From assembly GCA_963746235.1 (NCBI GenBank), contig CAVVCE010000007.1, positions 19,854 to 83,853 of the forward strand: a stretch of DNA of 64,000 nt. Reading direction: 5' to 3'. The notes under the pieces were generated by a model. That model made no database searches and was not told the origin of the DNA. It worked only from the letters and a program-made list of their open reading frames with translations. The position numbers and the translations under genes were made by a program. Of the stretch, positions 1,095-49,503 are shown one piece after another (within the stretch, counting starts at the first letter, position 1; every line of letters starts with the position of its first letter). Source of the stretch: an uncultured Alphaproteobacteria bacterium (lineage in GTDB: Bacteria; Pseudomonadota; Alphaproteobacteria; Rhizobiales; Xanthobacteraceae).

Positions 1095-3011
1095 TCAGGC
1101 GCGGTCGAGCGGAATGACGATCGTGCAGCGCACCCCTTCGGGGGCGATCACGAGGTCGACGGTGCCGCCGAGCTCGTGGGGGATGAGATCGCGGATGAGG
1201 CTGGTGCCGTAGCCCGATTGCGCCGAAGGCGCGACCGGCGGTCCGCCGGTTTCGCGCCATGCGATCGCCAACGTCGCGCCGGCGGCGTCGGCCGGGCGCT
1301 CCCAATGCACGGACACCCGGCCATCGGGGCTCGAGAGCGCGCCGTATTTGGCGGCGTTCGTCACGAGTTCGTGAAGCACCATCGCCACCGCCTGGGTTGC
1401 CGCCGCGGTGAGCATCACGTCCGGGCCGCTGACCGTCATGTTCGCGTCCGTCGCATAGGGCGCGAGCTGGTGCCGGACGAGTTCGGTAAGGCCGGCGCCG
1501 TTCCACCGGCTCTGGCTGAGCAGCGAATGGGCCGTGGCCATGGATTGGATGCGGCCGTCGAGGGTCTGGATGAACTCGTCCATGGAGCGGCTGCCCTGGC
1601 GGGTATACATCGCGACCACGGCGACCCGAGCGAGGATGTTCTTTACGCGGTGGTCGAACTCCGCGATCAGCATGTCCTGGCGCTGTTCCGCGCGCTTGCG
1701 CTCGGTGATGTCGCGCGTCAGCCCCTTGAGAAGCACGAAGCGCCCGGCCGCGTCGAACTCGGCGCGCGACGTTTCCTCCAGCCAGACCTCCTGGCCGTCG
1801 GCGCGAATGAAGCGGAAGGTGAGCGCCTGGGAGGATTTGTCCGGGCGGACCTCGCGGATATGCGCCTTGAAACGCTCCCGGTCATCCGGATGGACCCGCT
1901 CCAGAAATTGGGTTGCGGTAAACGGCTCCTTCGGATCGAATCCCAGGATCTGCCCGGCGTTATTGCTGCGCCGCAGCGCGCCGGTGAGGACATCCCATTC
2001 GAATGCGGTCACCGCTCCGGCCGTCAGCGCCTCCTGCAGCCCGGTCTCGCTCTCCGTCAGCACGCGCTCGTGCTGGCGGCGCTCGGCGAACAGGGCGGCC
2101 AGCACGAATGCGCAAAGCGACACCGCCAGGATGCCGGCCTGGGCGCCGAGGATGCGGTCGGCAGGCAGCAGGCTCTGCTCGCCGAACAGGCCGATCCCGA
2201 AGGTCGTGGTCAAGACGATCGTGAGGGAGACGATGAATCCGGCTGCCGCGGAGAACACCGGCCGGCAACGGGCCGCAAGCCACAGCAGCAGCGGGAACAG
2301 CAGGGCGACCGGCACGACGGTCGCCCACGGCTCCTGCGGCAGGGCGATGACGAGCGCGCCCATCACCGCCAGGGCCGCGAGCGCGGTGCCGCCTTCGATG
2401 AGCTCGCTGCGCGGCGGCGGCTCGCGCACGGCCGCGGCGAGCCCGATCAGCAGCGGTGCGACGGTGACGATGCCCAGCGCGTCGGACGCGAACCAGTGGT
2501 GCCAGGTGGTCAGCAGCGGTGCCGTCGAGTGCTCGAAGAGCTTGAACCCGATCGTCCCGCCGATCCCCGAGGCGGCGCTTCCGACGATCGCCGCCGCCAG
2601 CAGGCCCAGCACGTGGCGCAGCCGGTCGAAGCTGAAGTCCGGGCCGAAATAACGCTCGATCAACGCGGCGGTGAGCACCGCTTCCCCGGCATTGCAGAGT
2701 GCGAAGACGACGGCCCCCGGAAAGCTCCGGTCGCCCATGAGGTTCGCCACGATGGTGGCGACGACCGCCCCTGCCGCCACCGGCCATCGCGCGGCGGGCC
2801 CGAGGGCGATCAGAGTGCCGGCGGAGACACCTGCGGCGGGCCAGAACACCGCCACGCCGTCGGGCTTGGTCAGCAGCAGAAGGCTGAGCTGCGCCGCCAG
2901 CAAATAGCCGATGCCGACCGCAGCGGCGAGCCCGGCCGAGCCCACCCACGGCTGCCTTTCAGCGGCGGCGGACCACTTGCCTTGGGCCCGCTTTCGCAAA
3001 TTCCGCAGCAT
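1095..3011 (-). CDS. Sensor histidine kinase, MASE1 membrane domain - PAS - HWE/HisKA_2 kinase core
   Basis: 638-aa ORF. It has a polytopic N-terminus, a PAS-like segment (AFEWDVLTG...), an H-box FDHRVKNILARV typical of HWE/HisKA_2, and an HATPase region HELVTNAAKYGA...GYGTSLI. Confidence 0.85.
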   Translation of the reverse strand: MLRNLRKRAQGKWSAAAERQPWVGSAGLAAAVGIGYLLAAQLSLLLLTKPDGVAVFWPAAGVSAGTLIALGPAARWPVAAGAVVATIVANLMGDRSFPGAVVFALCNAGEAVLTAALIERYFGPDFSFDRLRHVLGLLAAAIVGSAASGIGGTIGFKLFEHSTAPLLTTWHHWFASDALGIVTVAPLLIGLAAAVREPPPRSELIEGGTALAALAVMGALVIALPQEPWATVVPVALLFPLLLWLAARCRPVFSAAAGFIVSLTIVLTTTFGIGLFGEQSLLPADRILGAQAGILAVSLCAFVLAALFAERRQHERVLTESETGLQEALTAGAVTAFEWDVLTGALRRSNNAGQILGFDPKEPFTATQFLERVHPDDRERFKAHIREVRPDKSSQALTFRFIRADGQEVWLEETSRAEFDAAGRFVLLKGLTRDITERKRAEQRQDMLIAEFDHRVKNILARVAVVAMYTRQGSRSMDEFIQTLDGRIQSMATAHSLLSQSRWNGAGLTELVRHQLAPYATDANMTVSGPDVMLTAAATQAVAMVLHELVTNAAKYGALSSPDGRVSVHWERPADAAGATLAIAWRETGGPPVAPSAQSGYGTSLIRDLIPHELGGTVDLVIAPEGVRCTIVIPLDRA

Positions 3012-3331
3012 GTTGCACCCTCACGCGAATTGTAGCACAGGAAATACAACGCAAGTCGAGATGGAGTTTGGTCGCGGAGCGGCTATGCGCCGGTGCCGCC
3101 GGCGGCGACGGAATGGGTGGGCTCATGCCCGCCGGGAGGAGAATTTGACTGGGGGGCGGCGGCGAGGGAGGATGAGAATGCCGGTCCTGCTTCTGCGCGA
3201 GGATGCCGCGAATTCGACAAGCCGAAACGAATAAACGGCCTAAAGGGCCAAAAGGGGCGCGGGTATCGAGCGCCAGCCGCGCCGCCGACGTGTCCGCATG
3301 ATTGGTGCAATGATTGGGCAGGGAGACATAG

Positions 3332-3523
3332 ATGGCAAAGAAAACGGTGAAGCGGCGGGAGTGGACGAAAGAGGACGTCCGCACGCTCAAGAGCCTCGCG
3401 CGGGAGAAGACCAAGACCCCGGCGATTGCGCGCAAGCTCAAGCGCAGCGTCGGGGCGCTGTATCAGCAGGCCTCCAAGCTCGGCGTCTCGCTGGGAGCGC
3501 CGCGCAAGAAGCGGAAGAAATAA
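3332..3523 (+). CDS. Small basic protein, possible SANT/Myb-like HTH
   Basis: 63-aa ORF preceded by a GGGAGA RBS. Sequence is lysine/arginine-rich: EWTKEDVRTLKSLAREKTKTPAIARKLKRSVGALYQQASKLG. Confidence 0.5.
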   Translation: MAKKTVKRREWTKEDVRTLKSLAREKTKTPAIARKLKRSVGALYQQASKLGVSLGAPRKKRKK

Positions 3524-3549
3524 GCGCAAGCCGCGACACGGATCGCATC

Positions 3550-3575
3550 GGCTCCGGCTCGTCCGGGCCGGAGCC
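3550..3575 (+). terminator. GC-rich hairpin downstream of the small basic-protein gene
   Basis: GGCTCCGGC (3550-3558) pairs with GCCGGAGCC (3567-3575) across an 8-nt loop. There is no U-tract, so function is uncertain. Confidence 0.3.
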
Positions 3576-3776
3576 CCGCGCCCGCTGTCGGTTGGCGGCC
3601 GGCGCAGGTTTCGCGTGTAGCTGACCACGCTGATTTCGGCCCGCGCGATGGCCCATTTTTTGCCCACAATTTTATTCGGCCGGCAGGTCCTACCGGGATC
3701 ATAAGGGCGGCCGGGCGCCGACGCGGGGCGCGCACCCTACTGTGCCTCGCGGCCTGAAACTGGTTAGGAGAGGCGC

Positions 3777-4309
3777 ATGCGCATTGCCGTCGGTGCAGTC
3801 GTCTGATCTGCGGCTTGGTGCCGCCCGGCTTGGTGTCGCCCGGCTTGGCACAACCGAGCCGGGCGATGGCCCGGCACGCGCAAGTCTTCCACGGGCAAGT
3901 CTTCCACAGGCAGGTCTTCCACGCGCAAGTCGCCGCGGGGTGCGGATGGATCGGTGTCCAGGTCAGTCCGATGACGCGGGCATTCGCCGACAGCCTCGGC
4001 ATGGCGGAGCCCTACGGCGCAATTTTTGACCAGCCGGAAGCCGGAAGCCCCGCCGCGGACGGGGGAATCCAGGCAGGCGATGTGATCACCGCCATCAACG
4101 GCTCGCCGGTCATGCGTTCCAGCGATTTCGCCGCGATGATCGCCGCGCTGGCACCGAACACGACGGCCTATCTCACCACATCTCGCGATGGCCAGACGAT
4201 CGAGGTCATGCTGATGACCGGCTCGGGCAAATGCCCGGGCGCGCAGCACGGCGGCGTGCTCATTCCCGCCGGAGCAAACCTCGGCCGGCTGAGCGACGGA
4301 CTGGGATAA
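3777..4309 (+). pseudogene. Secreted PDZ-domain protein, apparent -1 frameshift inside the signal peptide
   Basis: ATG at 3777 gives MRIAVGAVV then a stop. Shifting one base joins it to LICGLVPPGLVSPGLAQPSRA... in the 3815..4309 ORF, and together they form a good signal peptide. PDZ core: GIQAGDVITAINGSPV... Confidence 0.55.
3811..3931 (+). repeat. Two adjacent 15-bp in-frame tandem repeat arrays
   Basis: CGGCTTGGTGNCGCC x3 (3811-3855) and GCAAGTCTTCCACNG x3.5 (3880-3931). They encode PGLVx and QVFHx pentapeptide repeats. Confidence 0.9.
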
Positions 4310-41189: not shown

Positions 41190-41786
41190 GCGAGTCCTCT
41201 GTTGGCAATGCGATACCGGCACCAAACCTAAAGGCGGCCTCGTTTCCAAAGCGCTAATCCGACTGGAGAAGCCGCCCCGTCGCAGGATCGTCCTGAACGA
41301 AACGTTGATCTCGTCAAGTACCAACGGGTCGCCAGCCGGAACGGCGAGTTGCAGCCGGCTTGCGCTCGATCTGGGTGTCATCCTCAACGGGGCATAAGGT
41401 GCGCGGTCGAAGCGTCCAGCGAAGCCGACTTCCGAAGGACGAGCCGGCCTCTAAAGGAAGTCGAGCCCAAGCATAACAGCTTCGCGGGAGTGGGGCACGC
41501 CACAAACTCGGGGCCTTTTGAAAATACGTAGGCCTGCCTGGCCGCAACTCGGCATCCCCCAGTCGCATGACCGTCCCGCGGCTGGGCGACCAAACGACCA
41601 TCCCCACAAACGACCATCCCCTCTTCGCGTGACGCGCCGGCTGATGTAAATTCATACACGAGCTGTCAGCTGGACGTGCCGAAGTCCTGCAAATCAACGA
41701 CAGCGTTGGTGCCTTCGGCAGGCGCTGTTTGCAAGAAATTGAACAATCTTGCGGGTGCCGTCAGCACCGCTTTTGAGAGGACGCCC

Positions 41787-43069
41787 ATGAGAACGTCGCA
41801 GGCTGTTTTCGCAATCATCGTTGCTGGCACTTTATGCTTTTCATTCGCGGCGCGGGCTGCGGACGCTCTGCCGCGCGCCAAGCCGGAAGAGGTCGGCATG
41901 TCCTCCGGGCGCCTTTCGCTGATCGACAAGGCGATCAATGGCGAGGTCGCGGCGGGGCAGCTCCCCGGTGCGGTGCTCGCCATCGCGCGGCGCGGGAGGC
42001 TCGTGTACCTTGAGGCATTTGGCTATCGCGACAGGGCGACCGGCGCGCCGATGACGACCGACGCTATCTTCAGCATCGCGTCGATGACCAAGCCGATGGT
42101 GGCCGTCGCCGCCTTGCAGCTTTACGAACAGGGCAAGCTGCTGATGGACGATCCGCTTTCGAAGTATTTCCCGAAATTCGCCGATATGCAGGTCGCCGTG
42201 CTGGACGCGGGCAAGGAAAGCATCATCCAAAAAATGCCGGCGGTGCGGAAGATCACCATTCAGGATCTCTTCCGGCATACGTCCGGCCTCAGTTACGGGA
42301 ACAGCGGCACAACCGTTCTACACAAGATGTACCCGGTATCGAGCGGCACGGCATCCCAAACCCTGAGTGGTGTTGAATTCCTCGACCGGCTCAGTTCGCT
42401 GCCTCTCGTGTATCAGCCCGGCACGGTTTGGGAATATGGGTTCGGTCTTGATGTTCTCGGACTTGTCATCGAATCGATAACCGAACAACCGCTGGGCCAA
42501 TATATGCAGGAGAATTTGTGGAAACCTCTGGGGATGTCCGACACTGGCTTCGTCGTCCCCGCCGACCAGGCATCGCGATATGCTCACCCGCTGCCCAACG
42601 ATCCCGTGACCGGACAGCCGCAAGCGGTGCCCATGCGGCTGCAAAAGCCGAAATTCGAGTGCGGCGGCGGGTGCGCCGCTTCCACGGCGGGAGACTACTT
42701 GCGCTTTGTCTCCATGCTGGTCAACAAGGGCCAATATGGCGATACGCGCATCCTTGGCCGCAAGACGGTCGAATACATGCTGTCGAACCAACTCGGGCCG
42801 GACGTCAGAAGAGTCAGTTGCGAAACAGCGGCTCGATCCATGCCGATTATGGTTTCGGACTATCGGTTGCGGTCCGCGTCACTCCGGGGATCGCGTCCAG
42901 CACCGGTTCTGTCGGCGATTTCTCGTGGCCCGGGGCATTCGGCACTTACTGGTGGGGCGACCCGCGCGAGGAACTGGCGGTGGTGTGGATGACACAAACG
43001 CCGGGATCGGCGCGGGGGAAATATCAGCGAATGATCAGAGCGATGGTCAATAATGCCATCACCGATTGA
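41787..43069 (+). pseudogene. Serine hydrolase (class C beta-lactamase/esterase family), -1 frameshift near 42806
   Basis: Signal peptide, SMTK (SxxK) and YGN motifs. The C-terminal ADYGFGLSVAVR...WPGAFGTYWWGDP is in ORF 42518..43069. Length is 3n-1. Confidence 0.8.
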
Positions 43070-43626
43070 CCGTTCTCGCCTCGACTTATGCGGATGAGGT
43101 CCAACGGGCCCGGATGAAACCGGGCTACTTTCATTCCTCCAACGCTGCACGATTTTGGCTATTGATCGGGCATCCAGACGGAGTAATAGCTCCAATGCTC
43201 ACCCTGGTAAGCTCCGAAAACCCTTGCCGGAGAGCGCGAGCGCATGGCGTGGCTGATCGCGAGCGGGTCTCCCTAAATAGTCATGCAAACGAGCCGTATA
43301 GACTGGCGGTCCAGGATGATTTCATTGATGCGTGCGCTGCTTTGTGGACTGCCGAGCGCGTCTACGGGCGAAGCAAAACGCATTCCGCCGATCGTTGACG
43401 CTCGCGGCCTCCACATCGCAATTTGAATTTAAGGAGCGAGGGGGCGGTTGCATCACGGCGGCGGTGATCGCGACAACGCATCGCCTAGAGGCGAATTGAA
43501 GTCGGTACAGAGCGACGCAGCCGGCGAAGTGTCGGCTGGCCCCGCCTCAATCGCTGGCCGCGTGACAGCGAGGCACGTGAAGGTCGTCTTCGGCGGTAAA
43601 TCCGACAACGGTCATTCCACGAAGGG

Positions 43627-44136
43627 TCAGATTTTTCGGCTATCGTAGGCCCAATGCAGGAGAGCCTGGCGCTGGCGCGGACGGCAGAAAAGGTCACCTG
43701 GCTCGCAGTGCCGCTCGATCTGCCGCACGTGCCGCCGCATCGCTTTCCATCGCTTGATCTGCCGTCGGTCTTCATCGGGCATCCGACGGCCGATGTAGTA
43801 ACGGCAATACCATTGGAACCAACCGCGCGGGTCGTCCGGATGAAGCCATCCTTTGTGGCGCCAGACAGATAGTGGTTGGCTGGCGTCAACGCCGTAAAAA
43901 TTGAGCGAGCAGTCGCGATGAGTTGGGGAAAGCCTGGCACCAACGAACCAAACTTCCGGAAACTCTTCTCGCGTATCCGTCATGTACTTGCCGCAAAAGA
44001 CGCCGAGCCGGAGCATCTGTCGCGGCGTGAGATCGGGCTTGAACTCCGGATCGAAATTGCGGCCGATGGGGGCGATTCGCGCGTAACGGTAGTCTTTCTG
44101 CATTCTGTCATTCACGACGACGGTGCGTTTGCGCAT
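43627..44136 (-). CDS. Conserved hypothetical protein (widely distributed uncharacterised family)
   Basis: 169 aa: FDPEFKPDLTPRQMLRLGVFCGKYMTD...DPRGWFQWYCRYYIGRR...RQALLHWAYD. Confidence 0.6.
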   Translation of the reverse strand: MRKRTVVVNDRMQKDYRYARIAPIGRNFDPEFKPDLTPRQMLRLGVFCGKYMTDTREEFPEVWFVGARLSPTHRDCSLNFYGVDASQPLSVWRHKGWLHPDDPRGWFQWYCRYYIGRRMPDEDRRQIKRWKAMRRHVRQIERHCEPGDLFCRPRQRQALLHWAYDSRKI

Positions 44137-44413
44137 TCTGCGTCCTTTTTTCGGGCGAAGTTCCGCTTCGCTCGAACGCTTTTGCGTTTGGAGGAGCCAA
44201 TTCTACCGCGACGACGTCTGGGACCGCCAGACCCGCTTCAGCCCCGATCCGAAAGGGAGCCAACCTTCGGAGCCGATCATGCGGCGCGCAGCACGACCCC
44301 GAATGGCCGCGCCGGCCGCATGAGGCAAGATCGGAAGCGCTCCCGTCGTCTCCGATGTTGTCGCGCTCTATGCTGTGCTACGGCATTTGGGTCCAAAATT
44401 GGGTCCATCCCCT

Positions 44414-44761
44414 ATGATTGAGGTGCCGATAAGCCGGCCGATACCCGCAGACCTGCGCGCGAGTTTTCTTGAAGCGGTAGAAGGCCTCCTTCCCTATTGG
44501 CGAGGCGCTCCGCCGGAGCCGGAGGTGACATGGGACCGGAAGCCGTATCCGATCAGCGCAATCTGCAATTTCGTGAACAATCCGAATTTTGTTCCGGAGC
44601 AAATGCCGCCCGTGCTCATCGTCTTGATCTGCGACCTGACAGACGCAACCCTTCCGCCGCTCGCCGACCACACCTATCAGGGAGGGGCGCGCTACGTCGC
44701 CGAAATCATCGAACGGCGCCGACGGCAATTTCGATCCAGACTCGGGGGACCATTGCTCTAG
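44414..44761 (+). CDS. Hypothetical protein
   Basis: 115-aa ORF from MIEVPISRP, divergent from the previous gene. No recognised motif. Confidence 0.35.
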   Translation: MIEVPISRPIPADLRASFLEAVEGLLPYWRGAPPEPEVTWDRKPYPISAICNFVNNPNFVPEQMPPVLIVLICDLTDATLPPLADHTYQGGARYVAEIIERRRRQFRSRLGGPLL

Positions 44762-45031
44762 GAGCAACCGAAAGGGATGATGCTTGGCCGCCGAGAACTG
44801 CCTCGATCCGAAAGACAGAGTCGCTGATGCTGGATGCACGATCGCGTCAGGTCCCGGATTTGCTTATTTTCTGATGTGATCCTGCAGCGGGCCGGCGATC
44901 GAGGCCACCCACCGCAGCTGGGCCGCGAAGCAAAAACGCCCGCCAAATCCAGACGTTGCTATGTCGCGACGATGAGCGGTTTGGCGCATGGCGTTCGCAG
45001 GAACCTTCGAGAACGAAAATAGGAATATAAT

Positions 45032-45241
45032 TCAAGATAGAGTGCGGCTATTTTCTCGCCAGAGAGCGGCGAGAAACTCAAGAAGGGCCATCTTTCCCGC
45101 CGCTCTTGCGGTCCCTTCCGATCTGAAATCGCCTTTCCGCAGACGAGCCGGAAGAGGCGCGCCATTGCGATAAACTTCCCATTCCCATGGCGAATGTGGA
45201 TTGGGCTGGGCCACCACAATCGTATAGTTTTCTTCGCTCAT
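45032..45241 (-). CDS. Small hypothetical protein
   Basis: MSEENYTIVVAQPNPHSPWEWEVYRNGAPLPARLRKGDFRSEGTARAAGKMALLEFL. It lies in frame behind a resolvase HTH remnant. Confidence 0.4.
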   Translation of the reverse strand: MSEENYTIVVAQPNPHSPWEWEVYRNGAPLPARLRKGDFRSEGTARAAGKMALLEFLAALWRENSRTLS

Positions 45242-45261
45242 GTCCGCAGGCTCGGTATCGG

Positions 45262-45640
45262 AATCGGTCGCCAAGGTACGATAGACCGACGCTCGGCCGA
45301 CCTCCAACGCTTTCGCGATCTCCGACGCTCCCCGCGGCCCTCGGCCTTCACGCACCCTGACCGCAGCTTGGGCGTTGGCTACGGGCCGTCCAAAGCGGTC
45401 TCGCGGACGTTGACGCCGCGGTCGCCGCCCGGGTTCGGGGTGCGGTCATGCTTGCAGCCGCGCGAGCAAGCGTCGCACCTGAGCCGCCTCCCATACCCCT
45501 GCCGCCCGCGGTCCGAACGCCGCGTCGATTTGATTCTTCAGCGATACCGCTCAAAGTCGATTGCCCGCGCGTCTCGGTGTCCTTGATGGTGGGCGCAAGG
45601 TCGACCGCAAACCGGCGCGCGTGTGACGCACCGACCTCCG
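45262..45640 (-). mobile_element. Serine-recombinase (resolvase/invertase) C-terminal remnants
   Basis: One piece is an HTH fragment, GASEIAKALEVGRASVYRTL. A second piece, RRFAVDLAPTIKDTETRGQSTLSGIAEESNRRGVRTAGGR, continues in another frame as VWEAAQVRRLLARLQA. No catalytic N-terminal domain. Confidence 0.5.
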
Positions 45641-45846
45641 AGCCGGCCCTGTGGCTGCGAAAAGGACCGCTTCGATTGCTCCAATCCGTGAACGACAGGA
45701 TGATCGGCGACCAACGGGGCTGAGCGCGTTAACGACGATCCCTTCTGCACACTATTTCCGCTTGACCCAAAATAACGGTCAGATATCTTGTTTATACAAA
45801 AGTAATGCAACTGTATTTTGATTGAATCAACCTTTGGTGGAGCTAC

Positions 45847-45996
45847 ATGACAGTCATAGCAATGCCGAGAAAGCGCCAGGAAGCCGATGCGGAATATCGT
45901 CAGCGAATGATCGTCAACGCCGTCGCGGCTTCCTTCATCGCCTTGTTGATAATCAGCGGGTATTGGGTGGTGAGCGCGCTGGCGGGAGCCTTCTAA
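45847..45996 (+). CDS. Small single-TM membrane protein
   Basis: 49 aa, below the track cutoff: MTVIAMPRKRQEADAEYRQRMIVNAVAASFIALLIISGYWVVSALAGAF. RBS GGTGGAG upstream. Confidence 0.4.
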   Translation: MTVIAMPRKRQEADAEYRQRMIVNAVAASFIALLIISGYWVVSALAGAF

Positions 45997-46131
45997 ATCG
46001 ATGTCCAGGCGGCCCGCCAAATGGCGGCACGAACGGCAACGGTGGCGCGTCACTCTTGGATCTCGCACCAGTGTGATAATTCGGCAACCAACGCGCCCTC
46101 CAATTGGCCTACGCTCCTCTTGCCCTCATGG

Positions 46132-46184
46132 GCATTTCCTCTTTGAAGCATTTCCTCTTTGAAGCATTTCCTCTTTGAAGCATT
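46132..46184. repeat. 16-bp perfect tandem repeat x3.3
   Basis: GCATTTCCTCTTTGAA repeated head to tail, immediately upstream of the terminator hairpin. Confidence 0.95.
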
Positions 46185-46189
46185 AGCTT

Positions 46190-46216
46190 GCCCCGCTTTT
46201 TGCGGGGCTTTTTCTT
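46190..46216 (+). terminator. Rho-independent terminator
   Basis: GCCCCGC-TTTTT-GCGGGGC followed by TTTTTCTT. Confidence 0.8.
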
Positions 46217-46563
46217 GTATGCCGAGCATGATCGACAGCTTGGGGGTGTAAGTCCTTTACCCAGCCTGATGGCGGCGAAGGGTTAGCGAAGCGCAAGGGC
46301 GTCGTCGCGAGGCGAGGTCTGAAAGAAGCGTGGAGCAAAGCCGCGACCCGATGGATAAGAACCGGATAACGAGGCCTCCCCGGCCGGACGAGCGAGCGAG
46401 TGATCGCGAAGTCCACTGCCATCCCCCCAACGCCGCCCTCGCGGCGCTCGGCTTGCCTTTCCTCGTGCCCACCAAACCGAGTAATTTACCGAACCGCCGT
46501 GTACGGACCCGTACGCACGGTGGTGTGGGAGGGGTGGGTCGTGAGGCTCCCCCCTATCCCGAT
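46217..46563 (+). mobile_element. ORF-less, truncated-architecture group IIC intron ribozyme (DI, DV, DVI)
   Basis: Conserved IIC blocks GUUAGC..CGCAAGGG..GUCUGAA.GAAGCG..GCAAA and AAGUCC...CUGCC. DV 46491-46527 is GAACCGCCGUGUACGGACCCGUACGCACGGUGGUGUG, with a CGC triad and a 2-nt bulge. DVI has a bulged A at 46556. The element starts 8 nt after the terminator stem. The 3' end is uncertain (46563-46567). Confidence 0.7.
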
Positions 46564-46784
46564 TTACGGTTGCACTATGGGCTCAACCGAGCCCTGCGCA
46601 TCGTCGGGCCGTACGGTTCTCGACTTTGAACAAGTCTCGCGAAGGACCGCACCAGTAGGCCGCGCCGAGCCTCTTTGATAGCGGCTTCCAGACCCATGGC
46701 ATAGGCCTGCCGAAACACGGTCATGCCGTCTGCCTCGGTCTGTTCGTTGAGGGCTTGGCGCGTTGGCGTCGCCGTTGCACCGGA

Positions 46785-47025
46785 TCAGTTGCCGCTGGCG
46801 GTCATCACCGCCTGACAGGGCTTGCTGATGCGCGGCTTCTGCTGCCTGAGGCAGGAGATAATGCGATCGAGACTCCCGATCGCGGAGACGCAGTAGCGAA
46901 ACACATCCCCGGTGCAGGCGGCGCGCGCCTCGGCTTCGCCGACCGCAAAGCTCGGGGTCGAGGAGGCGGCGAGCACCAGCGAGAGGACAATAGAAGCCGA
47001 GGTCAGTTTCCGAAATTTGTTTCAT
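46785..47025 (-). pseudogene. Small secreted Cys-rich protein, +1 frameshift just after the start codon
   Basis: ATG AAA CAA at 47025, then a one-base shift gives FRKLTSASIVLSLVLAASSTPSFA (signal peptide) + VGEAEARAACTGDVFRYCVSAIGSLDRIISCLRQQKPRISKPCQAV. Confidence 0.5.
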
Positions 47026-47595
47026 GAGAGCCCTCCAAGGTTGACCTGTTCCCAACCCCATAACGCTCGCACGCGAGATCCTGGAGTACCGTGATCGCCC
47101 TCACACAACGCATCTGGCCGGTGGGTACCGATCCTGACGATCGAGCACACGAGACAGTGCCCAGGGAAACGGTTCAGGTTCAACCGTTGAGGTCCAGAAG
47201 GGGGCGCAGCGGGTGACCGGACACGGCAACTGGAAGCCAAGTATCACACTAACCTACATGTAAGCCATTGAAATATATCACTTATGTCATGCAGGCGACA
47301 GTCTCAGCCGAATAGATGCTTCCTGTGATGTGAAACAATGATCGTGAGTTCCTCAAGATGGAACCGCTCGCGGGCACGAAGGTTGTTTCGGGAGGCCGGT
47401 GCGCAGGATGAGCGTAGCCAGCCATGCGAATTCCGCTGAAGGCGCCGGCCCTCGACCACCGGCAGGGTGCGGCCTGACGCTGTGCGAGCATCGTCGGCAC
47501 TTGGAGTCACCGGCTAGCGCGCTAACACCGGTTGTCATGAGGCACCCGCCGGCGAAACGGCGTCTCCTCGCGGCGTAGGCAGAAGCAGGGGGACG

Positions 47596-49503
47596 ATGCA
47601 AGAAGCACTATCCGACCCGGCAGACCGCTCAATTCCGTCGCAAGAGCCACTGGAACAGGGGAAACGCAGTCTTCTGATAAGGCGGTTCTGGTCGACGGCC
47701 ATCGGCTTCTGGGGTCGTCACGGGAGGCCCACCGCATGGATGTTATCTGCCGCGGTTCTAGCCATCATCCTATTCAACCTCGCAATGCTCTACGCCATAA
47801 ATTTGTGGAACCGGAAAATTTTCGACGGTCTGCAGGCTCACGACGCTGCGGCCGTCCTCTTCCTCTCGCTGATTTATTTTCCGCTCCTCATAGCAAGCGT
47901 GGGCTCGACCGTCGTCCAAGTCTATGTGCGCATGACGCTGCAGCGGCGATGGCGGGCGTGGCTCAACGGTCGGCTCGTCGACCGCTGGCTGGCCAATGGC
48001 CGATACTATCTGCTCAATCTGGTGAGCGGCGACCACAAGAATCCAGAATTCCGCATCGCCGAAGACGTGCGGATAGCCACAGAGGCGCCGGTCGAATTCG
48101 TCGCCGGAGTGACGACTGCATTCCTCTCCGCGGCGACCTTCGTGGCGGTACTGTGGGCGCTTGGCGGCACTCTCGATGTCCACGCGGGCACGGTCCATAT
48201 CGTCATACCGGGGTTCCTCGTGGTCGCCGCGGTGCTCTACGCGCTGTTGGCCAGCGGCTCCATGGTGCTGATCGGACGCCGTTTCGTCCCGGCATCGGAA
48301 GCTAAGAACCAGACCGAGGCGGAATATCGTTATGTTCTGACCCGGTTGCGTGAGAACGGCGAGAGCATAGCGCTGCTCGGCGGCGAGGAAGAGGAGCGCG
48401 CCGGCGTCGACCGCTCGCTCGGCAATGTTTTGCGGGCGTGGCGCGACCTCTGCTTTCAAAACATGAAAACCACAATGGTGTCGCAGACCAGCGGCTACAT
48501 CGCACCGGTGCTGCCGATCATTCTGTGCGCCCCCAAGTTTCTCGCCGGTGAATTGACGCTGGGCCAGGTCATGCAGGCGGCTTCGGCGTTTACGATCGTG
48601 CAGACCGCATTCAACTGGCTGGTGGACAACTATCCACGGCTTGCCGATTGGGCCGCATCGGCGCGCCGCGTTGCCTCCTTGATGGTATCAATAGACGCGC
48701 TGGAGCAGGCGGAAACCGGCGAAGAGCTCGGCCGGATCGAGCGGACCGAGGGCGAGGGGCCGGCTGAGCTGCGATTGCACGATCTCTCGGTTACGCTGGA
48801 TGATGGCACTGCGGTCGTCGACGAAGCCGAAGTCGCCATCATGCGCGGAGAGCGGGTGCTGATCGCGGGCGAATCCGGCACCGGAAAAAGTACGCTGGTC
48901 CGCGCCATTGCGGGGCTGTGGCCGTGGGGCGGCGGCCGAATCGAGTTGCGCCGTGGCGCTCGCATCTTCTTTTTGCCGCAGCGCTCATACGTGCCAACCG
49001 GCACGCTGCGTCGCGCCGCAAACTATCCGGACGCCGCCGAAAGCCGCAGCCGTGAAGACATCGAGGCGGCGTTCCGGCATGTCGGGCTCGATCATCTGAT
49101 CGATCGCCTCGACGAGGAGGCGCCTTGGGACCACACGCTCTCCGGCGGCGAGAAGCAACGCCTTGCCTTTGCCCGCGTTTTTCTCCACAACCCCGACATT
49201 ATTGTGCTCGACGAGGCGACCGCTGCTCTCGATACGGAAAGCCAGGACCGGCTCATGCAACTGATCTCCAAGCAGCCGTCCGAGACGACGCTGATAAGCG
49301 TGGGACATCGTCCCGAACTTGAGTCCTATCATAGCCGGAAGGTCGTCCTGGAGCGCCGGCGCGGCGAGACCCGACTTGTGAGCGACATCCGTCTGGCACC
49401 GAAATTCGGCCTGCGGGAATCGCTTTTACGCTGGTTGCCATGGTCGACATCAAGAAGGCCCGTAAAGAAAACAGAGGTCGCGGCGCCATCCGACGCGCCT
49501 TGA
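47596..49503 (+). CDS. Fused ABC transporter (SbmA/BacA-like TMD + NBD; YddA-type)
   Basis: 635 aa. N-terminal TMD with FWGRHG..., NPEFRIAEDV. NBD has Walker A GESGTGKST, signature LSGGEKQR, Walker B IIVLDEA. Confidence 0.85.
   Translation: MQEALSDPADRSIPSQEPLEQGKRSLLIRRFWSTAIGFWGRHGRPTAWMLSAAVLAIILFNLAMLYAINLWNRKIFDGLQAHDAAAVLFLSLIYFPLLIASVGSTVVQVYVRMTLQRRWRAWLNGRLVDRWLANGRYYLLNLVSGDHKNPEFRIAEDVRIATEAPVEFVAGVTTAFLSAATFVAVLWALGGTLDVHAGTVHIVIPGFLVVAAVLYALLASGSMVLIGRRFVPASEAKNQTEAEYRYVLTRLRENGESIALLGGEEEERAGVDRSLGNVLRAWRDLCFQNMKTTMVSQTSGYIAPVLPIILCAPKFLAGELTLGQVMQAASAFTIVQTAFNWLVDNYPRLADWAASARRVASLMVSIDALEQAETGEELGRIERTEGEGPAELRLHDLSVTLDDGTAVVDEAEVAIMRGERVLIAGESGTGKSTLVRAIAGLWPWGGGRIELRRGARIFFLPQRSYVPTGTLRRAANYPDAAESRSREDIEAAFRHVGLDHLIDRLDEEAPWDHTLSGGEKQRLAFARVFLHNPDIIVLDEATAALDTESQDRLMQLISKQPSETTLISVGHRPELESYHSRKVVLERRRGETRLVSDIRLAPKFGLRESLLRWLPWSTSRRPVKKTEVAAPSDAP

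Follow-up and report, generated by a model that had tools for sequence, protein, structure and literature searches.

The window analysed here, the whole stretch of 64 kb of DNA, contains a gene-poor, non-syntenic region of about 4.5 kb (window positions 43000-47550) flanked by a beta-lactamase-family gene (41676-42992) and by a gene encoding an SbmA/BacA-type ABC transporter (47596-49503). The closest homologues of the transporter are all metagenomic (L072-L074, with 92%, 88% and 82% amino acid identity) and share only that gene with the window; the closest named organism is a Rhodoplanes, at 71% amino acid identity. For the transporter protein and two other proteins of the window, no database record was found. 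Contigs from the same population (L097-L103, 95-99% nucleotide identity) cover 41653-45740. The region between the flanking genes contains only short ORFs, without Pfam matches apart from a weak one to a resolvase-type HTH fragment (45032-45355, - strand; PF02796, E=0.004), and includes a Cys-containing ORF of 63 aa (46785-46976, - strand). Comparison of the window with L097 revealed indels of about 180 and 300 nt within the population, and the region looks like variable or degraded mobile DNA. It also contains a 29-codon ORF (45907-45996, + strand) encoding a strongly hydrophobic peptide, MIVNAVAASFIALLIISGYWVVSALAGAF, in a local patch of lower GC content (0.54) about 200 nt upstream of a series of 16-nt repeats. 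The repeats (46132-46184, + strand) form 3.3 perfect tandem copies of GCATTTCCTCTTTGAA, each with an anti-Shine-Dalgarno-like UUCCUC, and lie directly 5′ of a terminator stem-loop at 46190-46208.

Behind this terminator lies a 347-nt group IIC intron sequence (46217-46563, + strand). The terminator and the parts of the element, including the remnant of the ORF for the intron-encoded protein (IEP), are as follows:

46190-46216, + strand: intrinsic-terminator hairpin with the U-rich tail TTTTTCTT (terminator scan; stem-loop at 46190-46208)
46217-46415, + strand: intron 5′ block, intron positions 1 to about 199 (homology to a Rhizobium etli intron, L001, and RF02001)
46413-46415, + strand: deletion junction CCA (pairwise alignment to L001)
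46416-46490, + strand: remnant of the 3′ end of the IEP ORF, then sequence up to domain V (tblastn and nucleotide comparison)
46491-46527, + strand: domain V (DV), intact (RF00029 match)
46528-46563, + strand: domain VI (DVI) hairpin, ending in ...CCCGAU (RF00029 alignment; aligns with the 3′ ends of relatives)

The initial annotation of this DNA had recognised group IIC features here, had described them as a miniature, ORF-less ribozyme and had proposed a covariance search with Rfam models. In a scan of the whole window, only two Rfam matches exceeded the gathering score, and both fall within the element: RF02001 (group-II-D1D4-3) at 46301-46463 (55.8 bits, gathering score 32, E=1.8e-8) and RF00029 (DV-DVI) at 46492-46563 (45.1 bits, gathering score 40, E=1.2e-5). 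Hence the segment is IIC intron sequence, with a match far above chance, and the IIC features are borne out where they had been placed. The element starts at 46217 with GUAUGCCGAGCAUG, and its 5′ block comprises the GUAUG 5′ end, the 5′ strands of domain I (DI) and of the DI arm and a complete EBS1 hairpin (46386-46414; loop at 46396-46403, EBS1 GAG at 46398-46400), as well as a GNRA-capped hairpin and the UCUGAAAGAA segment, with which the RF02001 model begins. DV carries the IIC-type CGC catalytic triad, including its G.U pair, and a bulge on the 3′ strand. In DVI, A46556 is unpaired, 7 nt from the ...GAU end at 46563. The triad and the bulged A are thus seen as the annotation had described them.

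The position of the element relative to the terminator is that of an inserted IIC intron. IIC introns are known to target terminators (PMC1702495). The terminator scan delimited a 7-bp, all-GC stem at 46190-46208 followed by TTTTTCTT, and the element begins 8 nt past the stem, the spacing that had been noted before. Among 15 members of the family, the intron 5′ end likewise lies 6-10 nt past a GC-rich hairpin, and in most of these 15 relatives positions 3-6 of the EBS1 loop covary with the final 3-4 bases of the exon (e.g., the EBS1:exon pairings CCGG:CCGG, CAUG:CAUG, CGGG:CCUG and AGA:UCU). In the window, the last three exon bases (IBS1, CUU, 46214-46216) are complementary to the EBS1 GAG at 46398-46400, indicating that the parent intron was matched to this site. 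The terminator targeted by the intron may be part of a small RNA gene. RF00519 (mmgR/suhB sRNA) gave a match at 46147-46223 of 24.6 bits against a gathering score of 41; because this match is sub-threshold and its first hairpin is mispaired, an upstream sRNA was not adopted as a feature. A bona fide mmgR match (45.6 bits with RF00519) was seen in Bradyrhizobium sp. 190 (NZ_JADPJL010000054.1; L022 3966-4047, - strand), about 80 nt upstream of a truncated IIC intron copy of the same family (3884 downward). In that copy the RF02001 region is complete (110 bits) and homology stops after it; it is another relic, located downstream of an sRNA gene.

The origin of the element was revealed by comparison with its relatives. 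A distant blastn search of 72,556 plasmids gave matches in 451 records, in nearly all of which positions 1-207 of the query were matched and DV-DVI was matched separately, about 1.8 kb away. The best relative is L001, a 1879-nt intron of the Rhizobium etli 8C-3 plasmid pRsp8C3c (NZ_CP017244.1; L001 2501-4379), which contains an IEP ORF of 461 aa (2914-4299) and scores 135.8, 47.7 and 41.2 bits with RF02001, RF01998 and RF00029, respectively. By pairwise alignment, the left part of the element with the adjoining exon (46208-46423) corresponds to L001 2493-2706 with 92% identity, and the 5′ block is likewise 92% identical to positions 1-206 of the R. etli intron. The right part (about 46413-46564) corresponds to L001 4229-4380 with 75% identity under permissive scoring, its final 107 nt reaching 82% under default scoring. 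The two blocks are collinear with L001, the left one stopping at L001 2698 and the right one restarting at 4229-4231, and about 1,533 nt of L001 are missing from the element. At the junction, the CCA at 46413-46415 is present in both parental sequences (GAAGUCCA/UGGUC on the left, GCCA/UUGCC on the right). These breakpoints were taken from pairwise BLAST; a global MAFFT alignment of the element with ORF-less relatives misplaced DV.

The sequence just past the junction is coding debris. Positions 46426-46476 encode PNAALAALGLPFLVPTK, a conserved C-terminal motif of the intron-encoded protein, which is 59-69% identical to the LPNAFFxxLGLPxL motif of nine full-length relatives (tblastn against the IEP C-termini). 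At the DNA level too, the segment between the junction and DV aligns with the IEP ORF tails of full-length introns, and about 17-22 C-terminal codons of the IEP remain. Both termini are therefore collinear with a full-length intron, the interior is gone and ORF debris lies at the junction. Together, the two blocks and the encoded C-terminal motif indicate that a single deletion of about 1.53 kb in an ORF-containing intron gave rise to the element. It could be argued that the deletion arose during assembly and that the true genome carries a full-length intron at this site, since the source lineage is apparently uncultured or poorly represented and all of the metagenome contigs from the same population end before the element. 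However, the blocks share only 3 bases at the join, far too short for a collapse by a graph-based assembler, and the diverged ORF tail past the junction differs from those of all relatives retrieved, making an artefact so improbable that it can practically be set aside.

The deletion removed ribozyme parts together with the protein gene. Homology to the full-length intron ends just past the EBS1 hairpin, so DI is incomplete: in the RF02001 alignment, the 3′ strands of the DI arm lie past this hairpin in the full-length relative, where the window has ORF debris. Gone are these 3′ strands, the DI closing helices, DII, J2/3, DIII and the IEP; the ribozyme is short of about 280 nt (DII, DIII and the 3′ half of DI). 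The match of the element to the IIC intron, which had been proposed to hold block by block, thus holds for the 5′ block, DV and DVI and fails for these 280 nt. Accordingly, RF02001 scores 55.8 bits here compared with 135.8 bits in L001, 110 bits in L022 and 137.7 and 122 bits in L002 and L043 (in either order), all with a complete RF02001 region, and the 3′ third of the alignment in the window has low posterior probability and mispaired positions. By manual count on the structure lines, both partners are kept in 14 of the 48 RF02001 pairs (those of the first hairpin and of the EBS1 hairpin), and about 34 pairs have lost their 3′ partner. RF01998, which we take to cover DII, J2/3 and DIII, gave no match in 46100-46700 even at E<=10, as against 47.7-62.7 bits in L001, L002 and L043. 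Neither a reverse transcriptase (tblastn with a related intron protein, best E=0.64), the lack of which had been pointed out earlier, nor any other intron piece (blastn with two related introns) was found in the 64 kb, and the element itself has no RT/maturase gene in domain IV, as a mobile retroelement would.

In group II introns, DI serves as the scaffold onto which DV docks, and J2/3 makes the catalytic triplex with the DV triad. With the DI partners lost and without DII, J2/3, DIII or a reverse transcriptase, neither the DI scaffold nor the J2/3-DV triplex could presumably be built, and, judged from this anatomy, no activity is to be expected of an RNA without J2/3, DIII and half of DI. 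This bears directly on the proposal that the element is a functional, self-sufficient miniature IIC ribozyme which splices or cleaves with a reduced DI and DV. The significant covariance matches, the undecayed DV, DVI, EBS1 hairpin and 5′ end and the fit of EBS1 to the flanking exon are in keeping with it. Against it, in addition to the deleted pairing partners and the silence of RF01998, the sequence that joins the 5′ block to DV is coding debris of the protein gene and not a structured RNA linker, the natural ORF-less ribozymes of the same family measure 610-660 nt and keep all of these parts, and there is no homologue of the same architecture to show covariation. An apparent rescue of the structure, in which GCUCGGC (46447-46453) would pair with the 5′ GCCGAGC (46221-46227) to re-form the DI closing helix, was rejected: the former stems from the conserved ALGL codons of the IEP C-terminus and is also found at the equivalent place in the full-length introns L013, L025, L033 and L040. 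A miniature ribozyme is therefore highly improbable. What stands of the initial description is an IIC-derived element without an ORF behind a terminator; in place of a miniature ribozyme there is an internal deletion of about 1.53 kb, which left IEP codons behind and took the DI 3′ strands, DII, J2/3 and DIII with it.

No second copy with this junction was found in the window, in the 72,556 plasmids, in 68 GTDB loci or in a metagenome scan. None of the 451 matching plasmid records reaches 80% query coverage. The GTDB loci, retrieved with a family-conserved 31-mer from one genome per species, belong to Acidobacteriota, to delta-proteobacterial and Dehalococcoidia MAGs, and to Mesorhizobium, Bradyrhizobium and Methylocystis; none of the 68 matches the middle segment or the flanks of the window element, and none is from the source locus. 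In metagenomes, a pattern of GAAGTCC, 55-85 nt and DV (i.e., the end of the EBS1 hairpin 55-85 nt before DV) returned 22 loci, mostly full-length introns whose IEP tail chances to hold GAAGTCC. No mini was found among the 22, the classifiable ones being full-length or ORF-less forms of about 600 nt. Neither an empty site nor a site with a full-length intron was found among the transporter-homologue loci L072-L074 and the population contigs.

The searches recovered a decay series of the family: some eleven ORF-less elements that are complete (610-660 nt), one 1430-nt partial deletion (L012) and, in Bradyrhizobium, fragments of the 5′ part (L003, L022 and L026). The ORF-less elements occur in Acidobacteriota MAGs (L014, L047, L049, L054, L063 and L070), in Mesorhizobium delmotii (L043, 5467-6118) and on pNGR234b of S. 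fredii NGR234 (L002, 279743-280354). L002 and L043, the two that were checked with Rfam, have the full set of models (RF02001 122-138 bits, RF01998 54-63 bits). The ORF-less copies examined have their own hairpin upstream and an EBS1 loop fitted to their own exon end, and several copies can occur per MAG (e.g., three on CAWDSK01 contigs), which suggests mobility of the ORF-less form, as in HYER-type elements. In addition, a Desulfobaccales MAG (JBEKDQ010000065.1) contains an independent 364-nt mini of the same intron family (L046 4536-4173, - strand), composed of about 113 nt of the 5′ end, some 190 nt left over from the coding sequence of the IEP C-terminus, DV and DVI, behind a GC hairpin. 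Its breakpoint, at intron position ~113, and its parent are unlike those of the window element, hence the two are independent deletions and not a propagating lineage.

This second mini was considered together with the possibility that the window element is a non-autonomous mini-intron, spliced or mobilised in trans by the protein, and perhaps by the missing RNA domains, of a full-length sibling that may lie elsewhere in the genome. Both of its ends and EBS1 are kept, and L046 has a similar layout. Yet in reverse splicing the catalyst is the intron RNA itself, which here is without half of DI and without J2/3 and DIII; moreover, no same-junction copy came to light in the plasmids, GTDB loci and metagenomes, the breakpoints and parents of the two minis differ, and the window holds no helper intron. 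Such a mini-intron is very unlikely. A related reading, of still slightly lower probability, is that end-plus-end minis such as the window element and the 364-nt L046 are not inert debris. They might arise at insertion, through a jump of the reverse transcriptase from the tail of the ORF into domain I, or they might be non-autonomous elements that keep precisely the EBS1 hairpin for target recognition and the catalytic DV-DVI, and that a full-length sibling still helps to splice or move by providing the missing RNA domains and the protein in trans. Repeated independent deletions of the interior are in line with ordinary decay, and template jumping of the reverse transcriptase during insertion would also account for them.

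The retained ends are nearly pristine. The 5′ block deviates at one of the 121 columns that are conserved in at least 95% of 34 distinct relatives, the mean of the relatives being 0.85. The sole deviation, G3 to A at 46219, lies inside the conserved 5′-terminal motif and gives GUAUG instead of GUGUG (consensus GUGYG; among the 34 distinct relatives, GUGUG is found in 30 and GUACG in one). DV-DVI shows no deviation at 34 conserved columns (46 distinct relatives). As the retained ends are undecayed, the deletion is recent on the timescale of the family. The pristine ends fit a recent deletion but would also fit continued selection, and the retention of the EBS1 hairpin, DV and DVI, together with the similar end-plus-end layout of the L046 mini, counts against the element being a mere relic.

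Another reading is that the relic has been co-opted for some other role, its stable DV and DVI hairpins serving, for example, as extra 3′ structure for read-through transcripts from upstream or as part of a small RNA. The element lies directly past a terminator that follows three repeats containing UUCCUC, next to the sub-threshold RF00519 match (24.6 bits), and Toro et al. (PMC4181065) speculated that intron fragments that are conserved may be retained close to transcribed regions. However, conservation of the relic was not found in the plasmids, the GTDB loci or the metagenome scan, nothing indicates a specific function, and the predicted fold is no more stable than that of shuffled sequences (z=-0.52), a test that also failed on an intact relative. 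Indeed, the MFE z-score was dropped as a test of structure, for it does not discriminate in this GC-rich family (-0.52 for the mini, -0.73 for an intact 652-nt ORF-less relative). Co-option of the relic has little probability.

Overall, the element is very probably an internally deleted relic of a class C (IIC) group II intron retroelement, most likely dead, rather than a miniature ribozyme. The parent, a full-length intron measuring about 1.9 kb and carrying the protein gene in domain IV, would have reverse-spliced 8 nt past the terminator hairpin, guided by the hairpin and by the 3-bp EBS1-IBS1 pairing GAG:CUU. As the alignment shows, a single deletion over the CCA microhomology then removed about 1.53 kb; it starts just past the EBS1 hairpin (at about intron position 199) and stops some 22 codons short of the end of the protein gene. 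The deletion may have occurred in place or during cDNA synthesis, as both fit. Left behind are some 199 nt of the 5′ end, a remnant of the C-terminal codons of the protein, DV and DVI, a relic that presumably neither splices nor moves and that may persist because it is harmless behind a terminator in gene-poor intergenic DNA.

The locus should hence be labelled as a group IIC intron remnant and not as a ribozyme gene. Its value is modest: it offers a clean and apparently young example of the decay of a bacterial group II intron by a single microhomology deletion, in which the protein gene and part of the ribozyme were removed together, and it is a trace of earlier intron activity in an alphaproteobacterial lineage that is poorly sampled. 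Were the mini to splice or move, the minimal group II core would have to be redefined, but nothing found points there.

By descent the element is a IIC intron, and it falls outside the complete ribozymes, the retroelements and the ORF-less/HYER elements. With full-length IIC introns (e.g., that of R. etli pRsp8C3c, B.h.I1 of Bacillus halodurans and O.i.I1 of Oceanobacillus iheyensis), it shares the CGC triad, a DVI with a bulged A, a position a few nucleotides past a terminator hairpin and a short EBS1-IBS1 pairing, and its 5′ 199 nt are 92% identical to the R. etli intron. Unlike them, it has lost about 1.53 kb comprising the 3′ half of DI, DII, J2/3, DIII, the 5′ side of DIV and nearly all of the RT/maturase ORF. 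The HYER class consists of ORF-less IIC ribozymes with nuclease activity, HYER1 being 637 nt long, according to PMC12990946, which cites Liu et al. 2024 Science. The window element resembles these and the ORF-less IIC elements in having no protein gene, in its IIC lineage, in the same conserved 5′ block and DV-DVI and in its position behind a hairpin. However, ORF-less elements have a full D1-D5(6) in about 600-650 nt, with non-coding sequence upstream of DV and without coding remnants or the IEP-tail motif, whereas the window element, at 347 nt, is about 280 nt shorter, has a truncated DI, is RF01998 negative and carries an IEP tail.

[quoted passage not shown] Those mini-introns are numerous, lie inside essential genes, are without DV and are excised with presumed trans factors, whereas the window element is intergenic, single-copy in the data searched and has kept DV. 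Closer parallels are found among bacterial remnants. Bacterial genomes commonly contain group II introns that are truncated, fragmented or internally deleted (PMC2504315, PMC4181065; such bacterial introns are documented in PMC4424553 too), and non-mobile derivatives are thought to be short-lived (PMC4424553). In Sinorhizobium meliloti, the remnants include FRE652 and a copy of RmInt1 with an internal deletion of nt 1520-1844 (PMC4181065), and in Bacillus cereus E33L, copies of B.c.I7 have an RT ORF reduced to its first 13 and last 28 bp (PMC2504315). RmInt1 belongs to another class (IIB3) and its breakpoints differ, and B.c.I7 lost the ORF alone, unlike the window element, in which the deletion removed ribozyme domains as well. 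Like these documented remnants, the element is the truncation or deletion product of an ORF-containing intron, betrayed by what remains of its ORF, and it lies, as they do, in the intergenic or mobile DNA of soil alphaproteobacteria and other bacteria.
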